Source: Enterobacteria phage IME_EC2 | Strand: one strand, 5' to 3' | Sequence record: NC_047742.1 | DNA length: 41,510 bases | Part shown: piece by piece, positions 3,689 to 40,396 of the stretch | Layout of the letters: the number at the start of each line of letters is the position of its first letter | Position numbering within the stretch: the first letter of the stretch is position 1 | Program-made: the position numbers and the translations under genes | Notes under the pieces: generated by a model | Seen by the model: only the letters and a program-made list of their open reading frames with translations | Told to the model about the DNA's origin: nothing | Database searches by the model: none

Positions 3689-3718
3689 GAGCCGCTTTTT
3701 AAGCGGCCCTTTTTTTTA
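3689..3718. terminator. intrinsic terminator (GAGCCGC-TTTTTAA-GCGGCCC + T8)
   Basis: Stem-loop flanked by T-run on plus side and U-rich on minus side. Confidence 0.65.
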
Positions 3719-3817
3719 GAGTACCATCGACACGCCGAAACCGATTAAAGCCCACAGCGCGGCGCTTGCTGCGATTACGCCCCATATAACGTATTTGTGT
3801 CCGCGTAAGTTGTTCAT
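3716..3817 (-). CDS. small hydrophobic protein (33 aa, one TM)
   Basis: ATG with strong SD (AGAGGGGAA), overlaps upstream stop as ATGA; short, so uncertain. Confidence 0.45.
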   Translation of the reverse strand: MNNLRGHKYVIWGVIAASAALWALIGFGVSMVL

Positions 3818-4206
3818 GCGATTTTCCCCTCTTTCTTGAATTTTGCCAGGCGTCCGCGAATTGAAGGACGCGATTTGTTGAGCCAGTTCGCGACGTGCGC
3901 GTGAGTGAGTTCGGTCGGCACTATCACCCGGCGACCAGTGGCGATCACCAGTTCGTCCAGATCCTCGTCGGTCAGAAGTCCCTCCCAGAAGCGGACCAGC
4001 TTCCGGTCCTCCTCCGTCGTCCATTGCGTGTACGTCCGGTTATACGCCAGGGAGAGGCCCAGCTTAGAGGCCCGGACCTGCATCTGGCGGAAGTTGCGAC
4101 CGATGCGCTTCGCCAGTTCGTGCGGCGGCATGGTCGCGGCGAGGCGGGTCAGTTCCGCGTCCTGCTCGTCAGTCCACCCGATAATCTGCGCTGTTACTTT
4201 ACCCAC
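3814..4206 (-). CDS. putative DNA-binding protein with two GcrA/Myb-like WT-x-EED repeats
   Basis: GTG start with AGGAGG 7 nt upstream; GWTDEQDAEL...ASKLGLS and QWTTEEDRKL repeats resemble the GcrA N-terminal domain. Confidence 0.55.
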   Translation of the reverse strand: MGKVTAQIIGWTDEQDAELTRLAATMPPHELAKRIGRNFRQMQVRASKLGLSLAYNRTYTQWTTEEDRKLVRFWEGLLTDEDLDELVIATGRRVIVPTELTHAHVANWLNKSRPSIRGRLAKFKKEGKIA

Positions 4207-4762: not shown

Positions 4763-4786
4763 AAAAAAGGCCCCGGAGGGCCTTGT
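4763..4786 (-). terminator. intrinsic terminator for minus-strand operon (AAGGCCC-TCCG-GGGCCTT + U-run)
   Basis: GC hairpin followed on minus strand by TTTTTTG, directly after stop of ORF 4788..5528. Confidence 0.6.
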
Positions 4787-4787
4787 G

Positions 4788-5528
4788 TCAGAATGGAGCG
4801 TTTTCGATGTAGACCGCGACGGCGAAGCCTTCGGGCGTGGCGCTTCGGATGTTCTTCGTTCGTGTGCTGGATCCGCCCAGTCTCGACCAGCCCGGATTAT
4901 CCTTAACAGCCGGGACGCTCTGGAATGCCGGGAAGCGGAAGCCGCCACCGCACCAGATCCCCGTCTGCTTCGGGTACGCGTCCCGCGCCGGATAGATCTC
5001 CGGGTAGAGGCTATGCTGGTGATCCTCCGGCAAGTAGCCGCCGAAGTTGTAGGGGTGGAACCAGTGATCGCAAGGTCGCCACATCGTGGAGAGCCGGGAG
5101 ATCTTCGGATTCTCCAGCATCCAGGGGACCAGCGTTTTGTCCTCATAGTCGCCGTTTTCGTACCCGGCAAACGTAGCCACCTGCTCGACCATCTTCGCCA
5201 GCGCGACGGCCTTCTCCTGGAAGCGTGGATCCTTCTTGCGCTTCGCTTCCCACCATCTGGCCCCGGTACAGGTTAGATCGGTGCATTCAGCAAAGGAGGC
5301 CACGAAGATCACGCCCGGCCCGACTTCATCGGCGATTCTGAGCGCTTCTACTTCCGTGTTGTCTGCGTCGAACATCCGGCCCACACGGATCAGGTTCGGC
5401 TCGTCGGCGTCTGGGTGGATCCCTGGCTCGTGCTGCCCGTCATACATCCAGCATTCCACGCCAGCCTCCAGCCACTTGTCCACCATGATCCGGGTCAGGT
5501 TAAACAGGAAAATCGCCTTATGCTTCAC
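4788..5528 (-). CDS. hypothetical protein (246 aa) in Dam/clamp-like operon
   Basis: ORF 4788..5561 trimmed to GTG (VKHKAIF) with AGGA upstream; start is uncertain (an ATG 14 codons downstream is an alternative); no family recognised. Confidence 0.55.
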   Translation of the reverse strand: MKHKAIFLFNLTRIMVDKWLEAGVECWMYDGQHEPGIHPDADEPNLIRVGRMFDADNTEVEALRIADEVGPGVIFVASFAECTDLTCTGARWWEAKRKKDPRFQEKAVALAKMVEQVATFAGYENGDYEDKTLVPWMLENPKISRLSTMWRPCDHWFHPYNFGGYLPEDHQHSLYPEIYPARDAYPKQTGIWCGGGFRFPAFQSVPAVKDNPGWSRLGGSSTRTKNIRSATPEGFAVAVYIENAPF

Positions 5529-5751
5529 GGTTCTGATCCTTCTCGTACTCGTCGGCGTCACGCTTGATCAGCGCGTCCCACTGGTCCATATGTACCGGGT
5601 TATAGTCCTGCTCGAAAGAGAGATCGAGCGCCTCGGCGAAGTGCTCGGCCTCCTCACGGGAGGCCACCAGCTTACGCGCCATTAACTCGTCCGCGACCTT
5701 CTCCTGGAAGATGGCCCAGCGGCTATTAGTGTGACCGTCGTTATATTTCAT
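5518..5751 (-). CDS. hypothetical protein (77 aa, acidic)
   Basis: ORF track. Confidence 0.5.
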   Translation of the reverse strand: MKYNDGHTNSRWAIFQEKVADELMARKLVASREEAEHFAEALDLSFEQDYNPVHMDQWDALIKRDADEYEKDQNREA

Positions 5752-5754
5752 TGC

Positions 5755-6336
5755 TTACACTCTCGCGGGCATAATGATCAGGGTTGCCTCGCCGTCCGGC
5801 GTGGTCAGGTTCACGCGGATCGGCTCCGCTGCGCCGTTAAAGTTCAGTTTCGCAAAAGGCATCTTGATCCCGAACTTCTTCGCCAGCCTCTCGACCATTC
5901 CGAGGTAAGGCGTCGCCACGCCGATCTCGTGGACGGCCTTCGAGTTCTCGCGGGCCTTGTTCAGTAACGCGTCCACGTTCGGATAATTGGCCTCCACAAT
6001 GTCCACGGTCCCCACAGCGACGCGGGCCTTTTTGTGGTCCACTTCTTCGAGGTCCTTCGGCTTGTCTGCCGGAATGTCCAGCCAGTACACGATCCCCGCT
6101 TCGGTATCGATCACGGCGGAGAAGATCCGCCCAGTCGGTGGCGTGGAGATTGAGAGGATAATCCCCTCCTCCGGCGCGTTTACCAGCTTATGGGTACTTT
6201 CCATGCAAACATGACCGTTAGACGTGCGGATCCGGTTCCCGATGAAGTGGAGCGCGTTCAGGTAGTAGCGGACGTCCTGCTGGCCTTTGGTGAGTTGGTG
6301 AGCGCGTAAGGCGCTTACTGGTGCATAAATAATCAT
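5755..6336 (-). CDS. DnaN-like beta sliding-clamp homolog, truncated (about two domains)
   Basis: QQDVRYYLNALHF matches DnaN QDVRYYLNGMLFE (start of domain II); C-terminus EATLIIMPARV matches DnaN C-terminus AAYVVMPMRL; 193 aa versus 366 aa for E. coli DnaN. Confidence 0.55.
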   Translation of the reverse strand: MIIYAPVSALRAHQLTKGQQDVRYYLNALHFIGNRIRTSNGHVCMESTHKLVNAPEEGIILSISTPPTGRIFSAVIDTEAGIVYWLDIPADKPKDLEEVDHKKARVAVGTVDIVEANYPNVDALLNKARENSKAVHEIGVATPYLGMVERLAKKFGIKMPFAKLNFNGAAEPIRVNLTTPDGEATLIIMPARV

Positions 6337-6352: not shown

Positions 6353-6994
6353 TTAAATCATCGTTTTGCCTTCGAACATCATTTCCGCCTGGGTCAGATA
6401 TTCAGTCTTGATCGGTCCGCGCTTCTTCGGCTTGATAACGAACATCACGGACGGCTTGCTGTTTTTCTTGCCCGCGACTTCGGTCCCTGCCTTCACGAAC
6501 GCCACGCGCCCGGAGTTCTCTCCGTCGCTGGTGATGTGAATTACCAGGCTCCCGGCGTCCAGCGCCTTCTTAAACCACGCCGTGGACGCGTCGGAGTTCA
6601 GGAGGAAAACGGTCGTAACGTCGCGATCCTTCGCTTGCTGGATGGCCTTCACGATCCACGGAAGCGGCTCGGCGTAAGGAGGATTGCACCAGGCCAGCCC
6701 GCCCTCCGCGCCCCAGTCTACGCCGTCCTTGAGGGCGTCCGTTTTCTCGTCCAGATAGACGTCACAAAGCGCGTTTGCTTTCTCCGCTGCGACGTCGATC
6801 CCGAACTGCCCGAAGCGCTTCACAGCCCAGTCGAACAGCCAGCGCGGGGTCTGCCACTTCTGACGGATAGCGTCCGGCGTCTTGGACTTGTTGAAGCGGC
6901 GACCGCTAACAGTGGTCACGTCTGCCGCTGCGCGTTCCGCTTCGGTCATGCCGTCCACATGGTCGATCGTGGTGGTGTCTTTCTCGTCTTTCAT
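6353..6994 (-). CDS. phage N6-adenine DNA methyltransferase (Dam family)
   Basis: WQTPRWLFDW near N-terminus and catalytic-type motif NPPY (LAWCNPPYAE), typical of phage N6A-MTases. Confidence 0.8.
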   Translation of the reverse strand: MKDEKDTTTIDHVDGMTEAERAAADVTTVSGRRFNKSKTPDAIRQKWQTPRWLFDWAVKRFGQFGIDVAAEKANALCDVYLDEKTDALKDGVDWGAEGGLAWCNPPYAEPLPWIVKAIQQAKDRDVTTVFLLNSDASTAWFKKALDAGSLVIHITSDGENSGRVAFVKAGTEVAGKKNSKPSVMFVIKPKKRGPIKTEYLTQAEMMFEGKTMI

Positions 6995-7068: not shown

Positions 7069-7125
7069 TTATGGCTTCTCACGTTTCCCTGTAGCAACAT
7101 TAGCGCCGCTGGTATCGACGCATTA

Positions 7126-7151
7126 AGCCCCCGCGCCGGGGCTTTTTTTTT
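7126..7151 (+). terminator. terminator-like hairpin (AGCCCC-CGCGCC-GGGGCT + T9), plus-strand polarity
   Basis: Strong hairpin plus T9 on the plus strand, abutting the stop of the minus-strand primase gene; minus-strand side has only an A-run upstream. Confidence 0.5.
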
Positions 7152-7968
7152 ACCCGAACGCCCCCGCAAGATGCCCGCCGACGCATGGCCTCCCCGTCCT
7201 CTCGTAGCCGTACAGGAAAACCTCGTCCGGGTCAGTGTAGACGAACCGGATCTCCCGATCGCCATCGTAGATCGCCGACGCCTGGATCGCGTTCATAGGC
7301 CGGAACGTCAGCCAGACCTCCGCCTCCCCTCGCGCCGCCACGTTCACGGCATGGACCGGATCCGCCACCAGATACACCGGAGCGTCCGGCGCTGGGTGGA
7401 TCAGCCCTACCGCGCCCCACGTCGGGCCACCAGCGGCAAACACCACAGACCTGTCGGAGCCGATCTTCGCCACGTTGCACCACGGCCCCAGCGATCCCCC
7501 CAGTGGACGAGCGCATGGAACATACAGGAAGCCGTCGCGCATTGCGCCTTTGCTCATGACCTTTTCCACGTCCTCCGGGGTCAGCTCCCAGTCCTGCGCG
7601 GGCTTGTCCTGCTGGCGGGCATACTTGCGGGCCTCTTTGACGATCGTTTCCCGCTTCTCCGGGGTGAGTCCGCCTATCCAGTCGCCCAGGTCGTTGATCG
7701 CTTCGTTGAATGGCTGCGATCTGCTGGTCATAAACCAAAACATGCCATCACGAGCGCCACCGCACGAGCCGGAACAGTACCCGAAGCCCTCGGCCTTCTT
7801 CGTCTGCTGCTTATGGCCCCAGCGAAAGCGATCCGTCCCGCCGCATATCGGGCAAGGCTGGTGATTGCCGTTAAACGCCTTGCGGTCCCAGCCGCACAGA
7901 TCGAGGAGCGCCTGTTCCCACTTGCCGGGCATCGCGGCGAGAACGTCCTCTTTTTTATAAATTGCCAT
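7150..7968 (-). CDS. putative DNA primase (P4-type Zn-ribbon plus TOPRIM-like region)
   Basis: HQPCPICGGTDRFRW zinc-binding motif typical of phage/plasmid primases; AGGAGG SD. Confidence 0.55.
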   Translation of the reverse strand: MAIYKKEDVLAAMPGKWEQALLDLCGWDRKAFNGNHQPCPICGGTDRFRWGHKQQTKKAEGFGYCSGSCGGARDGMFWFMTSRSQPFNEAINDLGDWIGGLTPEKRETIVKEARKYARQQDKPAQDWELTPEDVEKVMSKGAMRDGFLYVPCARPLGGSLGPWCNVAKIGSDRSVVFAAGGPTWGAVGLIHPAPDAPVYLVADPVHAVNVAARGEAEVWLTFRPMNAIQASAIYDGDREIRFVYTDPDEVFLYGYERTGRPCVGGHLAGAFG

Positions 7969-8030
7969 CTTGCCCTCCTGAGTTTTCCCGGTTACTATAA
8001 ATCACGCTTTAATGATATTACAAGGAATAA

Positions 8031-10073
8031 ATGGAAATGGTCGAGACATTAGAAAGGCAGATCGCGGCCCTCGATCGCGACGCCATTCTCCGCGCCCTCG
8101 GTGATATGCCCGTAACGCCATACGATCACCAGTTCGTCGCATATGAGGCTTGCGCGAAGGCTATCCGTAAATATCCGGGGCCTGTCATTGTGGACGCCGC
8201 CGTGAGCGCCGGGAAAACCATCATGATCTCCATGCTGGCCCGCCGGATCAGGGATATGGGATTCCCCGCCATGATCCTGTCCCGCCAGGGTGAGATCATC
8301 GATCAGGACTTCGAGGAGTTGCGGAACTTCGGCGTAAACTCCTCGATCTACTGCGCCAGCTTAGGCCGCAAGTCTGCACACTTCCCGATCGTCGTCGGCT
8401 CCGAGGGTACAGTGATCGGAGGGATCCGCCCAGGCCAGCCCCTCGCCCATTACGCGCCGTTGTTCCTGCTGATCGATGAATGCCATCACGTCAACATTGA
8501 GGACCTGATCCGCTCGGAGGAGCGCGTGGTCCCGGAGTACCTGCGGGACGATAACGGGACCGTTATCCTCGACGGCTTCGGGGATCCGACCATTATCGGC
8601 GAGCATAAGGGCGAGACATACGAGGAGATGATCGAGGCGGGTCGCTCCAGTTATACGATCATCATCCGAACGTTACAGGCCCGCGCCCGGTCAGTGTACG
8701 GGAAGGAACTCCGCATTATCGGCTACACTGGGACGCCTTACAGGGGCGTGGAGTCCATCATCCAGCCAGACCTCGAACAGCCCGGATTCTGGCGTGAAAA
8801 GGTCTGCGAGATCTCGACGGAATACCTCGTCAGCGTTGGCGCTGTCGTTCCGACTCACTTCGGGATCTCCAATCTCCACTACAACCTCGACCAGTGGCGA
8901 TCGACGGGTGAGGACGGCATTAAGGAGTTCACGGACTCCGACATGGACGCCATGCAAAAGGCGATCCTGAAAGAGAAAAAGCTCACTCATGAGATCATGG
9001 CGGAGGTCTACGCCATCGCCCAGCACAGGAACGGCGTGTTAGTGACGTGTGCGGGCGTGAGACACTGCAAACAGGCGGCGGAGGCCCTTCCCCCTGGTAC
9101 GCCTTACGCCATCATTACGGACGACACGACGGGCAAGAAGCGCATGGACATTTTGCGCCGCGCCAATACCGGGGAGATCAAGTTCATTTTCCAGGTTAAC
9201 GCCCTAACGACTGGCGTTAACGTCCCGTTCTGGGACACGTCCGTGATCCTGCGGAAGATCGGCTCCCTCACGCTCCTAACCCAGCTTTTAGGCCGTGGGA
9301 TGCGAATCCTTAAGCCGTTCCACATCGCCGCCGGGGTGACGAAAGAGGATCACCTGGTTCTCGACTACGCCGGGACGCTGGACGAACTCGGATCCCTGTA
9401 CTTCTCCCCGCTGCTGGAGGCATATCAGCACAGCGCCGACGAGAGCAAAGGAGAATTAGAGTTAGACTGTCCGAAGTGTCGCAAGGCGGGCCATCCTACG
9501 CTCAACGGCAAACACGCCCGACGCTGCCGCTACGTGGACGAGAACGGCGATCGCTGCGAACACTTTTTCCAGTTCATCACCTGCGACGACTGGAAGGACG
9601 CCAGCGGGCGGAAAGTGGTCCAAAAGGGATGCGGGGCGCAAAACGACATAGTAGCCAGGATCTGCCGCTGCTGCGGGAACTCGCTCGTAGATCCGAACAA
9701 GAACTTAAGCCGGACCACGTACAGCCGCGACGACTACGCGACCGTGAGAGGGTTCAGAATTGAATTAGCGCGAGGGACTGGGGGGATCGCCTTCCGGTAC
9801 GAACTGGAGAAGGACGGGGACCAGTTTGTGGCCTGGCAAGTATTTTGGCCCGGTAGCGACTCGCCAGCGGCGAAAAAGGAATGGGTCCATAATGGCATCC
9901 TTAAGCACGTCCTGGACGGCAAAATGAGGGCCACGATCAAGAAATGCCGGACGCCCCAGCAGGTATTAGAGTTCGCCCCGTACTTCATGGCCCCGCTTAA
10001 GGTCAGCCACCGGAAGATCGGCAAGGGTAAAGACGTTATCACTAACAAAATTTTCATGAATGAGGAGTTTTAA
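8031..10073 (+). CDS. SF2 DNA helicase (DExH box) with C-terminal Cys-rich zinc-finger region
   Basis: Motif I AAVSAGKT, motif II DECHH, motif VI QLLGRGMR; C-terminal CPKC...CRY...C...CRCC. Confidence 0.8.
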   Translation: MEMVETLERQIAALDRDAILRALGDMPVTPYDHQFVAYEACAKAIRKYPGPVIVDAAVSAGKTIMISMLARRIRDMGFPAMILSRQGEIIDQDFEELRNFGVNSSIYCASLGRKSAHFPIVVGSEGTVIGGIRPGQPLAHYAPLFLLIDECHHVNIEDLIRSEERVVPEYLRDDNGTVILDGFGDPTIIGEHKGETYEEMIEAGRSSYTIIIRTLQARARSVYGKELRIIGYTGTPYRGVESIIQPDLEQPGFWREKVCEISTEYLVSVGAVVPTHFGISNLHYNLDQWRSTGEDGIKEFTDSDMDAMQKAILKEKKLTHEIMAEVYAIAQHRNGVLVTCAGVRHCKQAAEALPPGTPYAIITDDTTGKKRMDILRRANTGEIKFIFQVNALTTGVNVPFWDTSVILRKIGSLTLLTQLLGRGMRILKPFHIAAGVTKEDHLVLDYAGTLDELGSLYFSPLLEAYQHSADESKGELELDCPKCRKAGHPTLNGKHARRCRYVDENGDRCEHFFQFITCDDWKDASGRKVVQKGCGAQNDIVARICRCCGNSLVDPNKNLSRTTYSRDDYATVRGFRIELARGTGGIAFRYELEKDGDQFVAWQVFWPGSDSPAAKKEWVHNGILKHVLDGKMRATIKKCRTPQQVLEFAPYFMAPLKVSHRKIGKGKDVITNKIFMNEEF

Positions 10074-28993: not shown

Positions 28994-31231
28994 TTACAGG
29001 CCAGCGAGTCCTAACTGGCGATCGGCGGACTGCTGCGCCTGGCGTTCTGCCATCTCGCGAGCGTTCCGATCCTCCTGCTGGTTGTGGCCTTGCCCCTGAG
29101 CCTTGAGGAACAGATCCGCCTGTTTGTGGGCGTCGCTGTTCTGCTGGCTCACGTACTTCTGGAGGACGGCGATCGCGTTCATTAGCTGATCCTGCGGGAT
29201 AGCCGCCGCCTCTGCCATCGTCTTGACCGTCTGCGCCTGTTTCAGATTGCCGTCGGACGCGGTGCTCTGCGCCTTGAGTTGCAATTCTAAGCGCTTGTTC
29301 TCCTGCTCCATCACTGCGGCCTGTCCCTGCTGCGCTACGCCCTGAGCGGCTACCATCTCCGGGTTTTCCTGCTGCTGGGCCGCTTGCTGGGCCTGTTGAA
29401 CAAGGGCTTTTTCTTCGTCCGTCTGCGGCTTAATGATGCCATTCAGGAGAAGCTGGCGGCGGCTGTACTCTTTGAAGTCCTGCAAGCCTTCGCCGTCCAT
29501 GTTCATGATGATCAGGCCCATGACTACGGCGGCGTTCGGGTCGCCTGGTGCCATCGACTGGAGGAGCGTCGTCAGGCTGCGGACGGTTGCGGTCCGTTTG
29601 GTGCTGCTGGACTCACCCACATCGGCCTCGACCTCATATTTCCCGCGTTTCAGGTCGTTAATCGCGATCGCCTCGTCCGTGTCGCGGTCGATCACTTTCC
29701 CGGTCATTAACACGAGATCGTCGGTCCCGTCCTCGTTCTTGATTCGGACGTAGTTCTCCGAGCCGTAGACCTTGCGGGCCGCGCTGAGGTAAACACGCCC
29801 GCAATGGCGGAGGGTTTTCCCCAGGTTGTCCATGTAGAGAGCGCCCTGTCCGTCCATACGGGCGAAAATGGCCTCCACGGTTTCGGTCGCAAGGTTCGAC
29901 GGAAGGGCCTCGACCTGGGAGGATCCGACGATCTGCTGGATAGTGCTCCCGGTGTACTGAAGGACCGCCGCCAGCGCTGGAGAGAGCGGAGTCGATGGCG
30001 TGTAACCCAGTGGCCCGGCTTGCTGCACGACCTCACCAGCGGCATTACGGAGCGATTTCGCGGGCAAGTATGCCGGGCGTTTCGTGTTACGTTCCCCCCA
30101 GGCGTCCGCCAGCTTGCCGGGAATCATGTCGATATCCATGATCGGGATGTTATCGCCGCCAGACTGCGCGGCCTGGTCCGCCATCATGGACACGATCAGG
30201 TTTTCCAGACGTTGCGCGTCGAGGGCCTGGGTCGCGTGACCGCTTACGCGCTCCATGTTGTCGATAAACGAGCGGCGGGCGTTGAACACGAAGATCGGGA
30301 TCCATTCGAACGGGATCAGCTTCGGCTCCTCGATCCATTCACCGCCGGACATAAGGCCGCAATAGACCTTACGGCGTTTCACTTTGCGGTCCTTCTGGCG
30401 CTCCCAGCCTCCGGCCTTAAGCTCGTCCTCGATCTGCTCGATCTCGTCCTCGTCGTACACCTCCACGTCCCCGGTGAGTGGGTTCTTATAGGAGATCACG
30501 GTGGTGTCCTCGATCTTCACCTCGTAGTAACGCGCCAGGTAGATCGCGTCCTTCGTGGCCCAGTCGAATTGTTTCCCGGTGTCCATCGCCAGCAGGTCCT
30601 CCGGGGCGAGCGCGTCGGGATATTTCTCCTCGTACTTGTCCGGGGTCATGCTGAATAGCTCCGCCATCCACATGGCATCCGAACGATCGTACATTTTGGA
30701 GTCCTGATCGATAAACAGGCACGAGGCCGGATCATAGATCGGATAAAAGACAATATGCCGGGCCTCGTTGTCCGGGTCGAACTCGTCCTCCAGTTCGGTG
30801 TCCATGCGGAAAGCGCCCATTCCGCCCGTCACGCCGTCGTCGTAGGTATTGTCCACGGACTCCGGCCCGTTCGACTCCTGGAAGTCGGCGCGGAACTTGC
30901 CGTTTAACTTGTCCGCCAGTTCTTCGGAGGCCTGGGTGTCCTTCGGGCGGAAAGTAACATTGATGCGGTTCAGTCGGTAGTCGGTGATAATGCGATCCAC
31001 CTCGCGCCCGACCTTGTTAAGCTCGAATCGAGGGTATTTCTGGAATCGTTCATCATCCATCGCAAAGCCGGAGTTCGTCGATCCTTCCCATTGTGCGCCC
31101 GGAATGCGGACGAAACGGGCCGTTTCGATCATCTTCTTACGACTGGACTCCTCGCTCCCGATCGCGGCGCTTAACTTATTACGTGCGCATTCCTGCCAGT
31201 TCTGCGCCTTCTTCGTTGCTCGTGCCATCAT
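28994..31231 (-). CDS. portal protein, P22 gp1-like
   Basis: Aligns by eye with P22 portal (YYEV, VKRRKVY versus IKRRRVY, PEMVAAQGVAQQGQAAV versus PAMVQAQGVLLQGQAEL); Gln-rich C-terminal barrel region. Confidence 0.9.
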   Translation of the reverse strand: MMARATKKAQNWQECARNKLSAAIGSEESSRKKMIETARFVRIPGAQWEGSTNSGFAMDDERFQKYPRFELNKVGREVDRIITDYRLNRINVTFRPKDTQASEELADKLNGKFRADFQESNGPESVDNTYDDGVTGGMGAFRMDTELEDEFDPDNEARHIVFYPIYDPASCLFIDQDSKMYDRSDAMWMAELFSMTPDKYEEKYPDALAPEDLLAMDTGKQFDWATKDAIYLARYYEVKIEDTTVISYKNPLTGDVEVYDEDEIEQIEDELKAGGWERQKDRKVKRRKVYCGLMSGGEWIEEPKLIPFEWIPIFVFNARRSFIDNMERVSGHATQALDAQRLENLIVSMMADQAAQSGGDNIPIMDIDMIPGKLADAWGERNTKRPAYLPAKSLRNAAGEVVQQAGPLGYTPSTPLSPALAAVLQYTGSTIQQIVGSSQVEALPSNLATETVEAIFARMDGQGALYMDNLGKTLRHCGRVYLSAARKVYGSENYVRIKNEDGTDDLVLMTGKVIDRDTDEAIAINDLKRGKYEVEADVGESSSTKRTATVRSLTTLLQSMAPGDPNAAVVMGLIIMNMDGEGLQDFKEYSRRQLLLNGIIKPQTDEEKALVQQAQQAAQQQENPEMVAAQGVAQQGQAAVMEQENKRLELQLKAQSTASDGNLKQAQTVKTMAEAAAIPQDQLMNAIAVLQKYVSQQNSDAHKQADLFLKAQGQGHNQQEDRNAREMAERQAQQSADRQLGLAGL

Positions 31232-38848: not shown

Positions 38849-40396
38849 TCATTTTTTGGTCGCATGTTCGAAGGCGTGGAAAAAGTCCGTCCGCTTAATC
38901 GGCGGCTCTGCGAAGTTGCGGAAGTGATCGGATAACATGCCTTTGGTCAGCTTCGGCAAGCGGTAGCCCTTGTCCTTGCGCTGCTGCGAGTATTCCACGA
39001 CGTAGGCCAGCAGTCGGATCGCCTGTTCCTCCTTCTTGCTGCGCTTGCGCGTGTCCTCCGGCTTCTCGCCCTCGTCCTTCTCGGCTGGCACTGCCTCCAG
39101 CGCGTTAATGACGACCAGCGTCCCCAGGTTGTCGCCGATCTCCCACGCCGCCGGGTTGGCCTTCGCCTCCGGGCGTACAGGCTGCATCCTCGCCAGCGCC
39201 TCGCGCTTCATCTTCACCAGGTCAGGCGGTAACTTCGCGGACTTCGTGCGCATGGCTCGCGCCGGGAGAAGCGCACAGCCTTTGGCCTTCGTGTGCTCAA
39301 TCACAAAAAGCTCTTTGTCCTTGCACTTCTTCACCATGATCTCGAATCCGGCGTTTGCCCTGAGCGTTGACGCGCCACGAGCGCCGCGCTCGGTGTCCTT
39401 CCCGGTGTGGTGGATGATCATCACGGCACAGTTAAGCCATTCAGCCAGTAACGCCGCGTTACGCATCAGGATCGCCGCCACGTTGTTGTCGTTCTCGTTG
39501 AAGTCGGTCCCGCCCTCCCAGCGGTCCGGCTCGTCGCCCTTGCCTGGGATCATGCGCTCGCCCACTTTCTGGCCCGCGCTGTTGGCGCTGTAGGTATCGA
39601 TCACGATCAGGGAAAGCGGGTTCAGGCCGAAGAATGGGGACGCCTTGATGGTTGCCGCGAACGTCTGGAGTTCGCTCTCGCGGTGTAGTGGGACCTGCTG
39701 GGACAATACCCAAAAGTTGGGTAACGGCTCGTTCTTGTTCTGCGTGTACTTCCATCCCGCGTAACGTTCACGGACGCCGCTCGCATCCTCCGGCGCGAAG
39801 TACATCACGGATCCCTGTCGGACTGGCAAGCCGCCGAAGTCGATCCCGGTGGCGACACAAATCGCCATTTGTAACGCTGCGAACGTTTTCTTTGCGCCGG
39901 ACTCGCCGACCAGGAAGCCCACGGAGCGCTCCGGGATCAGCGACTGGATCACATAGTTAACGGGCTTGATCTCGTTCGACTTGTTCAGGCTGGCGATCAG
40001 CGGGTCGTCCATTGCCTCGACCGCCAGCGCCTCGTCGATCTTCTTGCGCTGCTTCTCGCGCTGCTTCGCGAGGAGTTCCTGGCGACGTGCTTCGTCCTTC
40101 TCCTCGTCGGTGAGGTCTGACGTCTTGACGATCGTCGGCTTGTCGTTGCGGACGGTTGCCGTCCACTCTGCGGCCTCGTGCTCGTCGAAGTCGAAGAACG
40201 CCCCGGCATCCTGGGCGGATTCTGCTTCTCTCGCCGCGTACAGGCTGGCCTGTTCCTCGTAGAACTCCATAGGAGCCTCTGGCACGTCGTCAGCAGGTGG
40301 AGGCGTTACCGGGCCGGAGAACTCGCCCCGGACCATCTCGATCAGCTCCTCCTCGCTGCGCTCTGGTGTCGGCATTACTTCATCATAATCAGTCAT
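38849..40396 (-). CDS. RepA-like RecA-fold AAA ATPase (putative replicative helicase)
   Basis: Walker A GESGAKKT, Walker B-like LIVIDTYS, IIHHTGKD; acidic disordered N-terminal region. Confidence 0.7.
   Translation of the reverse strand: MTDYDEVMPTPERSEEELIEMVRGEFSGPVTPPPADDVPEAPMEFYEEQASLYAAREAESAQDAGAFFDFDEHEAAEWTATVRNDKPTIVKTSDLTDEEKDEARRQELLAKQREKQRKKIDEALAVEAMDDPLIASLNKSNEIKPVNYVIQSLIPERSVGFLVGESGAKKTFAALQMAICVATGIDFGGLPVRQGSVMYFAPEDASGVRERYAGWKYTQNKNEPLPNFWVLSQQVPLHRESELQTFAATIKASPFFGLNPLSLIVIDTYSANSAGQKVGERMIPGKGDEPDRWEGGTDFNENDNNVAAILMRNAALLAEWLNCAVMIIHHTGKDTERGARGASTLRANAGFEIMVKKCKDKELFVIEHTKAKGCALLPARAMRTKSAKLPPDLVKMKREALARMQPVRPEAKANPAAWEIGDNLGTLVVINALEAVPAEKDEGEKPEDTRKRSKKEEQAIRLLAYVVEYSQQRKDKGYRLPKLTKGMLSDHFRNFAEPPIKRTDFFHAFEHATKK

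Follow-up and report, generated by a model that had tools for sequence, protein, structure and literature searches.

A DnaN-derived protein of Enterobacteria phage IME_EC2 lacking the ring-closing segments of the beta clamp: a candidate receptor for clamp-binding motifs

The beta sliding clamp DnaN of Escherichia coli (P0A988; PDB 2POL and 1MMI; 366 aa) is built of domains that are themselves internal duplications, and its cleft receives clamp-binding motifs (CBMs) of the QL[SD]LF type from the alpha and epsilon subunits of DNA polymerase III (Pol III), from delta and Hda, from Pol II, IV and V, and from MutS and MutL. In this study we analysed a 41,510-nt stretch of DNA from Enterobacteria phage IME_EC2 (NC_047742.1), the whole of which is called the window below, and in it a minus-strand gene at 5755-6336 encoding a 193-aa homologue of DnaN, referred to here as the clamp-like protein. 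The collinear alignment covers domain II and, of domain III, the C-terminal half, and five cleft motifs (DVRYYLNG, T[DN]GH, DG.FPD, IGFN..Y and MPMR) are close to those of DnaN. The published dimer-interface residues, however, are all absent from the protein, and no more than a fraction of the DNA channel is left. On balance, and with some reserve, we favour a reading in which it is a ring-less receptor for CBM-bearing clients of the host clamp, acting as a decoy or a recruiter and not as a sliding clamp.

Viral clamp folds that do not form rings are known from herpesviruses, where UL42 (a monomer) and UL44 (a C-shaped dimer) bind the C-terminal peptide of a polymerase in an interdomain cleft. 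These are PCNA-type proteins of two complete domains, which work with the polymerase of the virus itself and contact DNA directly by a face that is strongly basic, whereas the clamp-like protein has 1.5 DnaN-type domains, is mildly basic and occurs in a window in which no phage polymerase was found. We calculated the isoelectric point (pI) across the family as a probe of UL42-like direct DNA binding; the outcome was mild basicity, the family being neutral to mildly basic (median pI 8.4) and DnaN acidic (pI 5.25). The best functional analogy is the engineered monomeric beta (I272A/L273A; PDB 1JQL), which forms no ring and keeps the CBM cleft; it still binds partners and cannot tether Pol III for processive synthesis (PMC11139829). 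It is, however, a laboratory mutant with all three domains, while the phage protein is natural and much smaller. Twort Gp168 (PMC8565349) and Mu MuC (PMC12867686) are also phage factors that exploit the beta-clamp hub, but their folds are unrelated and they act as ligands or inhibitors on the host clamp, whereas the clamp-like protein is a copy of the receptor site. Members of the same family have been annotated by name only, as in the 209-aa gp20 of Burkholderia phage AH2, 'DNA polymerase III beta subunit' (PMC3483164), and the 'putative beta sliding clamp' of Escherichia phage vB-Eco-KMB41. The resemblance to the beta clamp has therefore been known to annotators since at least 2012 (PMC3483164); we met with no published treatment of the 1.5-domain architecture, the missing ring elements, the retained cleft or the function of the family.

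Homology to DnaN and the missing ring segments

5755..6336, minus strand: gene of the clamp-like protein (193 aa and a stop codon), a module of about 1.5 domains derived from DnaN

The open reading frame (ORF) at 5755-6336 is a real gene under purifying selection and a true homologue of DnaN. Its product starts with MIIYAPV and ends with TLIIMPARV, and a GAGAGGA resembling a ribosome-binding site precedes the ATG. The ratio of nonsynonymous to synonymous substitution rates (dN/dS) against four Murrayvirus relatives is 0.06-0.30, which indicates that the gene is functional and under purifying selection. The region of the gene shares 99.2% identity with a phage of the genus Murrayvirus, Escherichia phage sortsyn (MN850623), whose counterpart is annotated as 'hypothetical'.

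As a single query the sequence matched nothing in Pfam, NCBIfam, the anti-phage defence models of PADLOC (E<=0.01) or a PDB sequence search. Pairwise BLASTP nevertheless aligned E. coli DnaN 139-180 with residues 10-44 at E 5e-6, and profiles gave a uniform picture: a close profile of 18 homologues had 24 matches in PDB, all of them beta clamps (best E 3.4e-6), the alignments falling into three collinear stretches and taking in the C-terminal MPxR motif, and a profile of 108 family sequences had 41 matches, again all beta clamps (best E 2.7e-23), with gammaproteobacterial clamps as the best ones. The family profile also recovers authentic three-domain DnaN proteins, which carry PF00712, PF02767 and PF02768, at E values of about 1e-20 to 1e-16. 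Searched individually against Pfam, 33 of the 108 family members match PF02767 (the central beta domain) and none matches PF00712 (beta_1) or PF02768 (beta_3). The length and key residues of the E. coli DnaN sequence used in scripted comparisons were checked against the PDB alignments.

AlphaFold2 with a deep alignment predicted a compact monomer with a predicted local distance difference test score (pLDDT) of 94.8 and a predicted template-modelling score (pTM) of 0.89; a shallow alignment gave pLDDT 83.5 and the identical order of secondary structures. The top 50 Foldseek matches in PDB are all bacterial beta clamps with probability 1.0, and in BFVD Foldseek matched a series of phage proteins, 160-280 aa long, that are named 'Pol III beta'. 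The global template-modelling (TM) scores against beta clamps are only 0.51-0.61, so that we take the geometry of the cleft from sequence. The initial annotation had recognised a DnaN-like protein from two short motifs; both are genuinely homologous (DnaN 148-160 and 357-366), and the profile and structure comparisons extend the similarity well past them.

5944..6336, minus strand: residues 1-131, equivalent of domain II and the II/III connector (DnaN ~129-253), from hidden Markov model (HMM) alignments to DnaN 136-252
5758..5943, minus strand: residues 132-193, corresponding to DnaN ~312-366, the second half of domain III only, from sub-HMM scoring
6037..6075, minus strand: insertion specific to the clade, IPADKPKDLEEVD (aa 88-100), between the two final strands of the part equivalent to domain II

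The collinear matches pair residues 7-130 with DnaN 136-252 and residues ~125-193 with DnaN 312-366. A weak HMMER alignment placed the C-terminal unit on DnaN 253-302 as well. Because clamp domains are internally duplicated, we then scored all six half-domains separately. The sub-profile of residues 132-193 reached 27.5 bits end-to-end against DnaN 309-366, 6.2 bits against 250-312, and no more than 0 bits against the four remaining half-domains. By these alignments the clamp-like protein comprises about 1.5 domains, namely domain II and, from domain III, the second half, and the two complete clamp domains originally suggested do not hold; the ~270 Foldseek alignment columns for 193 residues are consistent with this. 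In either AlphaFold2 model nine residues and no helix lie between strands 59-63 and 73-77, so that the second channel-lining helix of DnaN domain II has no counterpart, and the half-domain supplies one helix (142-154).

Of the two halves of DnaN domain III, the protein retains the one abutting domain II and has lost the one in contact with the partner protomer. Ring closure in DnaN depends on I78 and F106 packing on I272 and L273, and on ion pairs of K74, R96, R103 and R105 with E298, E300, E301, E303 and E304 (PMC11139829). All these residues lie in DnaN 1-128 or 254-311, segments without a counterpart in the clamp-like protein, which lacks domain I altogether. The protein thus lacks the full set of three domains, the dimer interface and the pair of channel helices per domain that mark DnaN proper. 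This bears on two assemblies proposed earlier: a PCNA-like trimer is rejected, as 1.5 domains offer no head-to-tail interfaces, and a poison subunit co-assembling into the host ring is unlikely with the ring-interface segments absent. Neither PCNA, gp45 nor UL42 structures occur among the Foldseek top 50.

The insertion at aa 88-100 is nearly private to the clade of the query (18 sequences, Murray/Sortsne/Dhillon-like). Its occupancy in the wide family is 0.09 (91% of members are without it), while D91, K92 and D95 are invariant in the clade, and residues 81-110, with 13 invariant positions, are among the clade's most conserved regions. From this conservation it may be a clade-specific second interaction surface.

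The clamp-binding-motif cleft across the family

An exhaustive HMMER search collected 742 cluster representatives (50% identity) at E<=1e-3, the best 150 of which are almost all 165-245 aa long. Homologues are carried by 141 phage records; the gene occurs in many T1-like, Jersey-like, Dhillon-, Murray- and Sortsne-type phages, and in a temperate Vibrio phage. Through 8 contig look-ups and 8 annotated regions we sampled 13 genomic contexts of divergent members. They are mostly replication or recombination modules, with the gene beside a helicase, primase, exonuclease, ERF, SSB or DnaQ-like RNase_T gene, and frequently with a DNA adenine methyltransferase gene (Dam or MT-A70) next to it or close by. 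No gene for a DNA polymerase was noted in its vicinity. As a side observation, the gene directly upstream varies, being HTH_ParB, DnaQ-like RNase_T exonuclease or superfamily 2 (SF2) helicase (L006 5207-6004; L015 3068-3682; L020 5185-7197). In one T1-like contig the HTH_ParB gene overlaps the start of the clamp-like gene by 4 nt.

In E. coli beta, CBM subsite I is formed by R152, L155, T172, G174, H175, R176, L177, P242, R246, V247, V360 and M362, and subsite II by H175, N320, Y323, V344, M362, P363, M364 and R365 (PMC11139829). We aligned 149 diverse family members with the corresponding DnaN segments. The five cleft motifs are located in the query as follows, with conservation values referring to the family.

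6244..6282, minus strand: QQDVRYYLNALHF, aa 19-31, equivalent of DnaN H148-F160, with R23 (R152) and L26 (L155); R 99% and L 96% conserved
6211..6222, minus strand: S39-N-G41-H42, equivalent of DnaN T172-D-G174-H175; subsite I, the H bridging both subsites; T 86%, G 99%, H 93%
5977..5994, minus strand: E115-A-N-Y-P119-N120, equivalent of DnaN D238-G-R-F-P242-D243; connector giving P242 to the cleft; P 99%
5905..5925, minus strand: I138-G-V-A141-T-P-Y144, equivalent of DnaN I317-G-F-N320-V-S-Y323; subsite II; N 74%, Y 89%
5761..5772, minus strand: M189-P190-A191-R192, equivalent of DnaN M362-P363-M364-R365; C-terminal wall of the cleft; M 96%, P 95%, R 84%

Each of the 18 published cleft residues can be aligned with a position of the family. 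The family consensus agrees with E. coli beta at 15 of these 18 positions and at 37 of the 128 other aligned positions (Fisher p=1.4e-5); likewise, 11 of 18 cleft positions are at least 70% conserved compared to 16 of 128 elsewhere (p=1.7e-5). Nearly all strongly conserved positions of the family are in or beside the five motifs, whose family forms are D-x-R-Y-Y-L-N-G, T-[ND]-G-H, D-G-x-x-P-D, I-G-x-N-x-x-Y and M-P-x-R. The query itself is identical to E. coli at 9 of the 18 (R23, L26, G41, H42, P119, Y144, M189, P190 and R192) and has conservative changes at S39, L124 and I187; R176 is replaced by V, R246 by A, N320 by A (A141) and M364 by A. Judged from these residues, the hydrophobic subsite I looks intact in the query clade, whereas changes affect two arginines at the rim and the part of subsite II that binds Gln.

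Proposed function of the retained cleft and alternative explanations

In the mechanism that we favour, evolution has trimmed DnaN to the pieces on either side of the II/III cleft. Domain II was kept together with the half of domain III next to it; domain I was discarded, as was the far half of domain III, and these are the sole ring-closing parts. Selection across hundreds of diverged phage lineages has kept the hydrophobic CBM cleft. The cleft would still bind CBM peptides and the protein would form no ring, which would make it a free or DNA-tethered CBM receptor, co-expressed with the phage primase, helicase and methylase genes. As a decoy it could titrate a CBM-bearing host protein (delta, Hda, MutL/MutS or translesion polymerases) off the host clamp; as a recruiter it could hold Pol III components at the phage helicase-primase. 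The decoy idea, already raised in the initial annotation, is still the most plausible class of mechanism. Since the cleft consensus is almost identical to that of the host clamp, a CBM protein of the host is a likelier ligand than one specific to the phage.

The window, which is a near-complete genome, and the relative Sortsne carry a primase, an SF2 helicase, a D5-like ATPase, ExoVIII and Erf, with SSB in Sortsne. No DNA polymerase was found in the window (ORFs of at least 230 aa scanned) or in Sortsne, so that replication should use host Pol III. Among possible partners, delta of the clamp loader uses subsite I only and not the Gln-pocket residue N320, which the query clade has lost. Monomeric beta binds delta about 50-fold tighter than ring beta does (PMC11139829). 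Its preference for monomeric beta and its use of subsite I, the subsite better preserved in the query clade, make delta an attractive candidate; any single partner is nevertheless much less probable than the general mechanism.

Several points weigh against a receptor for host clamp clients. The replacements in the query cleft may have shifted its specificity. The cleft is the most conserved part of DnaN too, and the enrichment reported above may partly reflect detectability in a distant homologue. A decoy for Pol III alpha would also harm a Pol III-dependent phage. In some phages the family gene is an isolated insert in tail modules, and some carriers of the family, such as Burkholderia phage AH2, encode a DNA polymerase (PMC3483164); from both we conclude that the role is not strictly tied to polymerase-less replication. 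Finally, we found no published study of the architecture or function of the family in the literature.

A true sliding clamp is the first alternative. Copies of the protein could assemble a closed ring by a new route and act as a phage processivity factor for host Pol III; for example, half-domains of two protomers could complement each other into a whole pseudo-domain, so that four protomers would make a six-domain ring. With internally duplicated clamp domains, two copies of the second half of domain III (IIIb) could in principle pair, and the C-terminal unit does show the weak similarity to the first half, IIIa (6.2 bits). The polymerase-binding cleft is kept, the gene lies among replication genes of a phage without its own polymerase, and 'DNA clamp protein' is the name used by many depositors. 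However, domain I and all known ring-closing residues are absent, domain II has lost one channel-lining helix of its two, and AlphaFold2 is very confident of a compact monomer. Fusions within the family speak against it as well. Two metagenomic proteins, P0206 and P0212 (locus L019 540-1445), consist of the intact module with all five cleft motifs, an acidic linker and a C-terminal FtsK-gamma winged-helix DNA-binding domain (E ~1e-24), and such separate DNA-binding domains would be needless for a topological clamp. From these fusions, DNA association, where needed, appears to be supplied by a separate domain rather than by ring topology. A further member, P0210, has extensions of ~75 aa at the N-terminus and ~65 aa at the C-terminus. 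A ring is in our view unlikely, and names such as 'DNA polymerase III beta subunit' or 'sliding clamp' overstate what the protein can be.

The second alternative concerns the neighbouring genes, which form the following unit.

7994..8023, minus strand: sigma-70-like promoter upstream of the primase gene; consensus match only, 2 sites found vs 1.3 expected
7150..7968, minus strand: primase (Zn-ribbon), first gene of the same-strand unit; PF08273, phrog_510
6353..6994, minus strand: phage Dam N6-adenine methyltransferase; PF05869 E 1.5e-44, TIGR01712 above cut-off
5518..5751, minus strand: 77-aa ORF; phrog_2676, function unassigned in PHROGs
4788..5528, minus strand: 246-aa ORF, last gene of the unit; phrog_757 'DNA methyltransferase', E 3.8e-64
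4767..4784, minus strand: strong intrinsic-terminator-like hairpin closing the unit
8031..10073, plus strand: divergent SF2 helicase (ResIII/Helicase_C), a recurrent neighbour of the family

The arrangement bears out the earlier proposal of an operon shared with Dam: the genes are on the same strand, the junctions are 16 nt (Dam to clamp-like gene), 3 nt (clamp-like gene to 77-aa ORF) and -11 nt (overlap of the 77-aa and 246-aa ORFs), and the terminator-like hairpin follows. One of the two proteins then listed as unknown, that of the 246-aa ORF, belongs to phrog_757 and is called Dcm or C5 cytosine methyltransferase by depositors. This ORF had no match in Pfam, NCBIfam or a PDB sequence search, and its methyltransferase identity is putative.

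Given these neighbours, the cleft could serve a phage-encoded ligand, with the clamp-like protein as an adaptor coupling the Dam and Dcm-like methyltransferases or the 77-aa protein to phage replication, comparable to PCNA and DNMT1. The gene lies between the Dam and methyltransferase-like genes here and in Sortsne, adjoins Dam in the Vibrio phage and is near MT-A70 in L020; the conserved private insertion of the clade would also suit a phage-specific partner. The 77-aa protein contains a CBM-like 'ALDLSF', and 'QAEMMF' at the Dam C-terminus (...LTQAEMMFEGKTMI) resembles the internal motif QADMF of Pol III alpha. These strings are not conserved in homologues, though. Those of the 77-aa protein, a narrow family of 7 clusters, have DLDLSF, DLETSF or DLEDSF, so that the fourth-position Leu is not kept, and the Dam string is retained in Sortsne (QAEMIF), reads KQDMLD in a clade of 42% identity and is absent from the Vibrio phage Dam. 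We did not find a robustly conserved CBM in the phage neighbours of the clamp-like gene. Between phages, the small ORFs downstream of the gene are unrelated, many family members have no methyltransferase nearby, and the 15 of 18 cleft positions shared with the host clamp argue for host-type ligands. We regard an adaptor for phage proteins as improbable.

It is less probable still that the host clamp itself is targeted, either by capping or co-assembly with beta monomers or by using exposed beta-sheet edges to dock on the clamp or the clamp loader. The truncation exposes sheet edges and the former half-domain interface, and phage inhibitors of the host clamp are known, such as Gp168 of Twort (PMC8565349); but the segments forming both sides of the beta-beta interface are exactly those missing, and conservation is concentrated in the cleft and not at the edges.

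A RusA-like Holliday junction resolvase, the label of phrog_3007, which the protein matches over its full length (E 2.7e-43), and of several RefSeq phage records to which that label has been propagated (NC_048178, NC_047862 and NC_048113), can be set aside with near certainty: Pfam RusA (PF05866) has no match to the query at E<=1 or to any of the 108 family members at E<=0.01, and every sequence-profile and fold match is a beta clamp. A PHROG match shows membership of a cluster and does not imply that the label of the cluster is correct; the label is a systematic mis-annotation without support and needs correction.

We know of no earlier natural case of a virus copying the docking pocket of the bacterial clamp without the clamp. 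If the cleft is functional, a receptor for host clamp clients would be the first natural viral copy of a sliding-clamp docking pocket of this kind. It would reveal which clamp client limits or endangers Pol III-dependent phages, and it would explain why the gene is common in the T1-like, Jersey-like, Dhillon-, Murray- and Sortsne-type phages of therapy collections. It would also offer a monomeric scaffold of 170-200 aa with the DnaN antibiotic-target pocket, convenient for ligand screening. As a tentative generalization, possible but short of probable, we suggest 'hub-pocket mimicry', in which phages encode a minimal ring-less clamp cleft, free or held on DNA by a separate DNA-binding domain, that captures host CBM proteins (such as delta, Pol III core, Hda, MutL/MutS or translesion polymerases) and so rewires host replication or repair for polymerase-less phages. 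If true, this would be a new principle of host takeover, in which a receptor cleft is encoded instead of a clamp-blocking ligand.

Other features of the window

A proteome-wide scan for CBMs gave one conserved candidate, 'QADLF' in the portal protein (28994-31231, minus strand; aa 704-708), which is identical in Sortsne; this perfect pentameric string near the C-terminus is probably a coincidence. The 515-aa protein encoded at 38849-40396 (minus strand) belongs to phrog_2850 and matches in part PHROGs labelled 'DNA polymerase/primase' and 'replicative helicase-primase'. Rather than a polymerase it is probably a D5-like AAA ATPase, as annotated in Sortsne gp01. A 130-aa ORF at 3814-4206 (minus strand) matches phrog_323, 'transcriptional regulator, D5-like', and weakly the Pfam family Inhibitor_G39P (helicase loader/inhibitor). 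A GC-rich hairpin with T-runs, called on the plus strand, lies at 7125-7144 between the primase and Dam genes, and a bidirectional terminator-like hairpin is located at 3689-3709.

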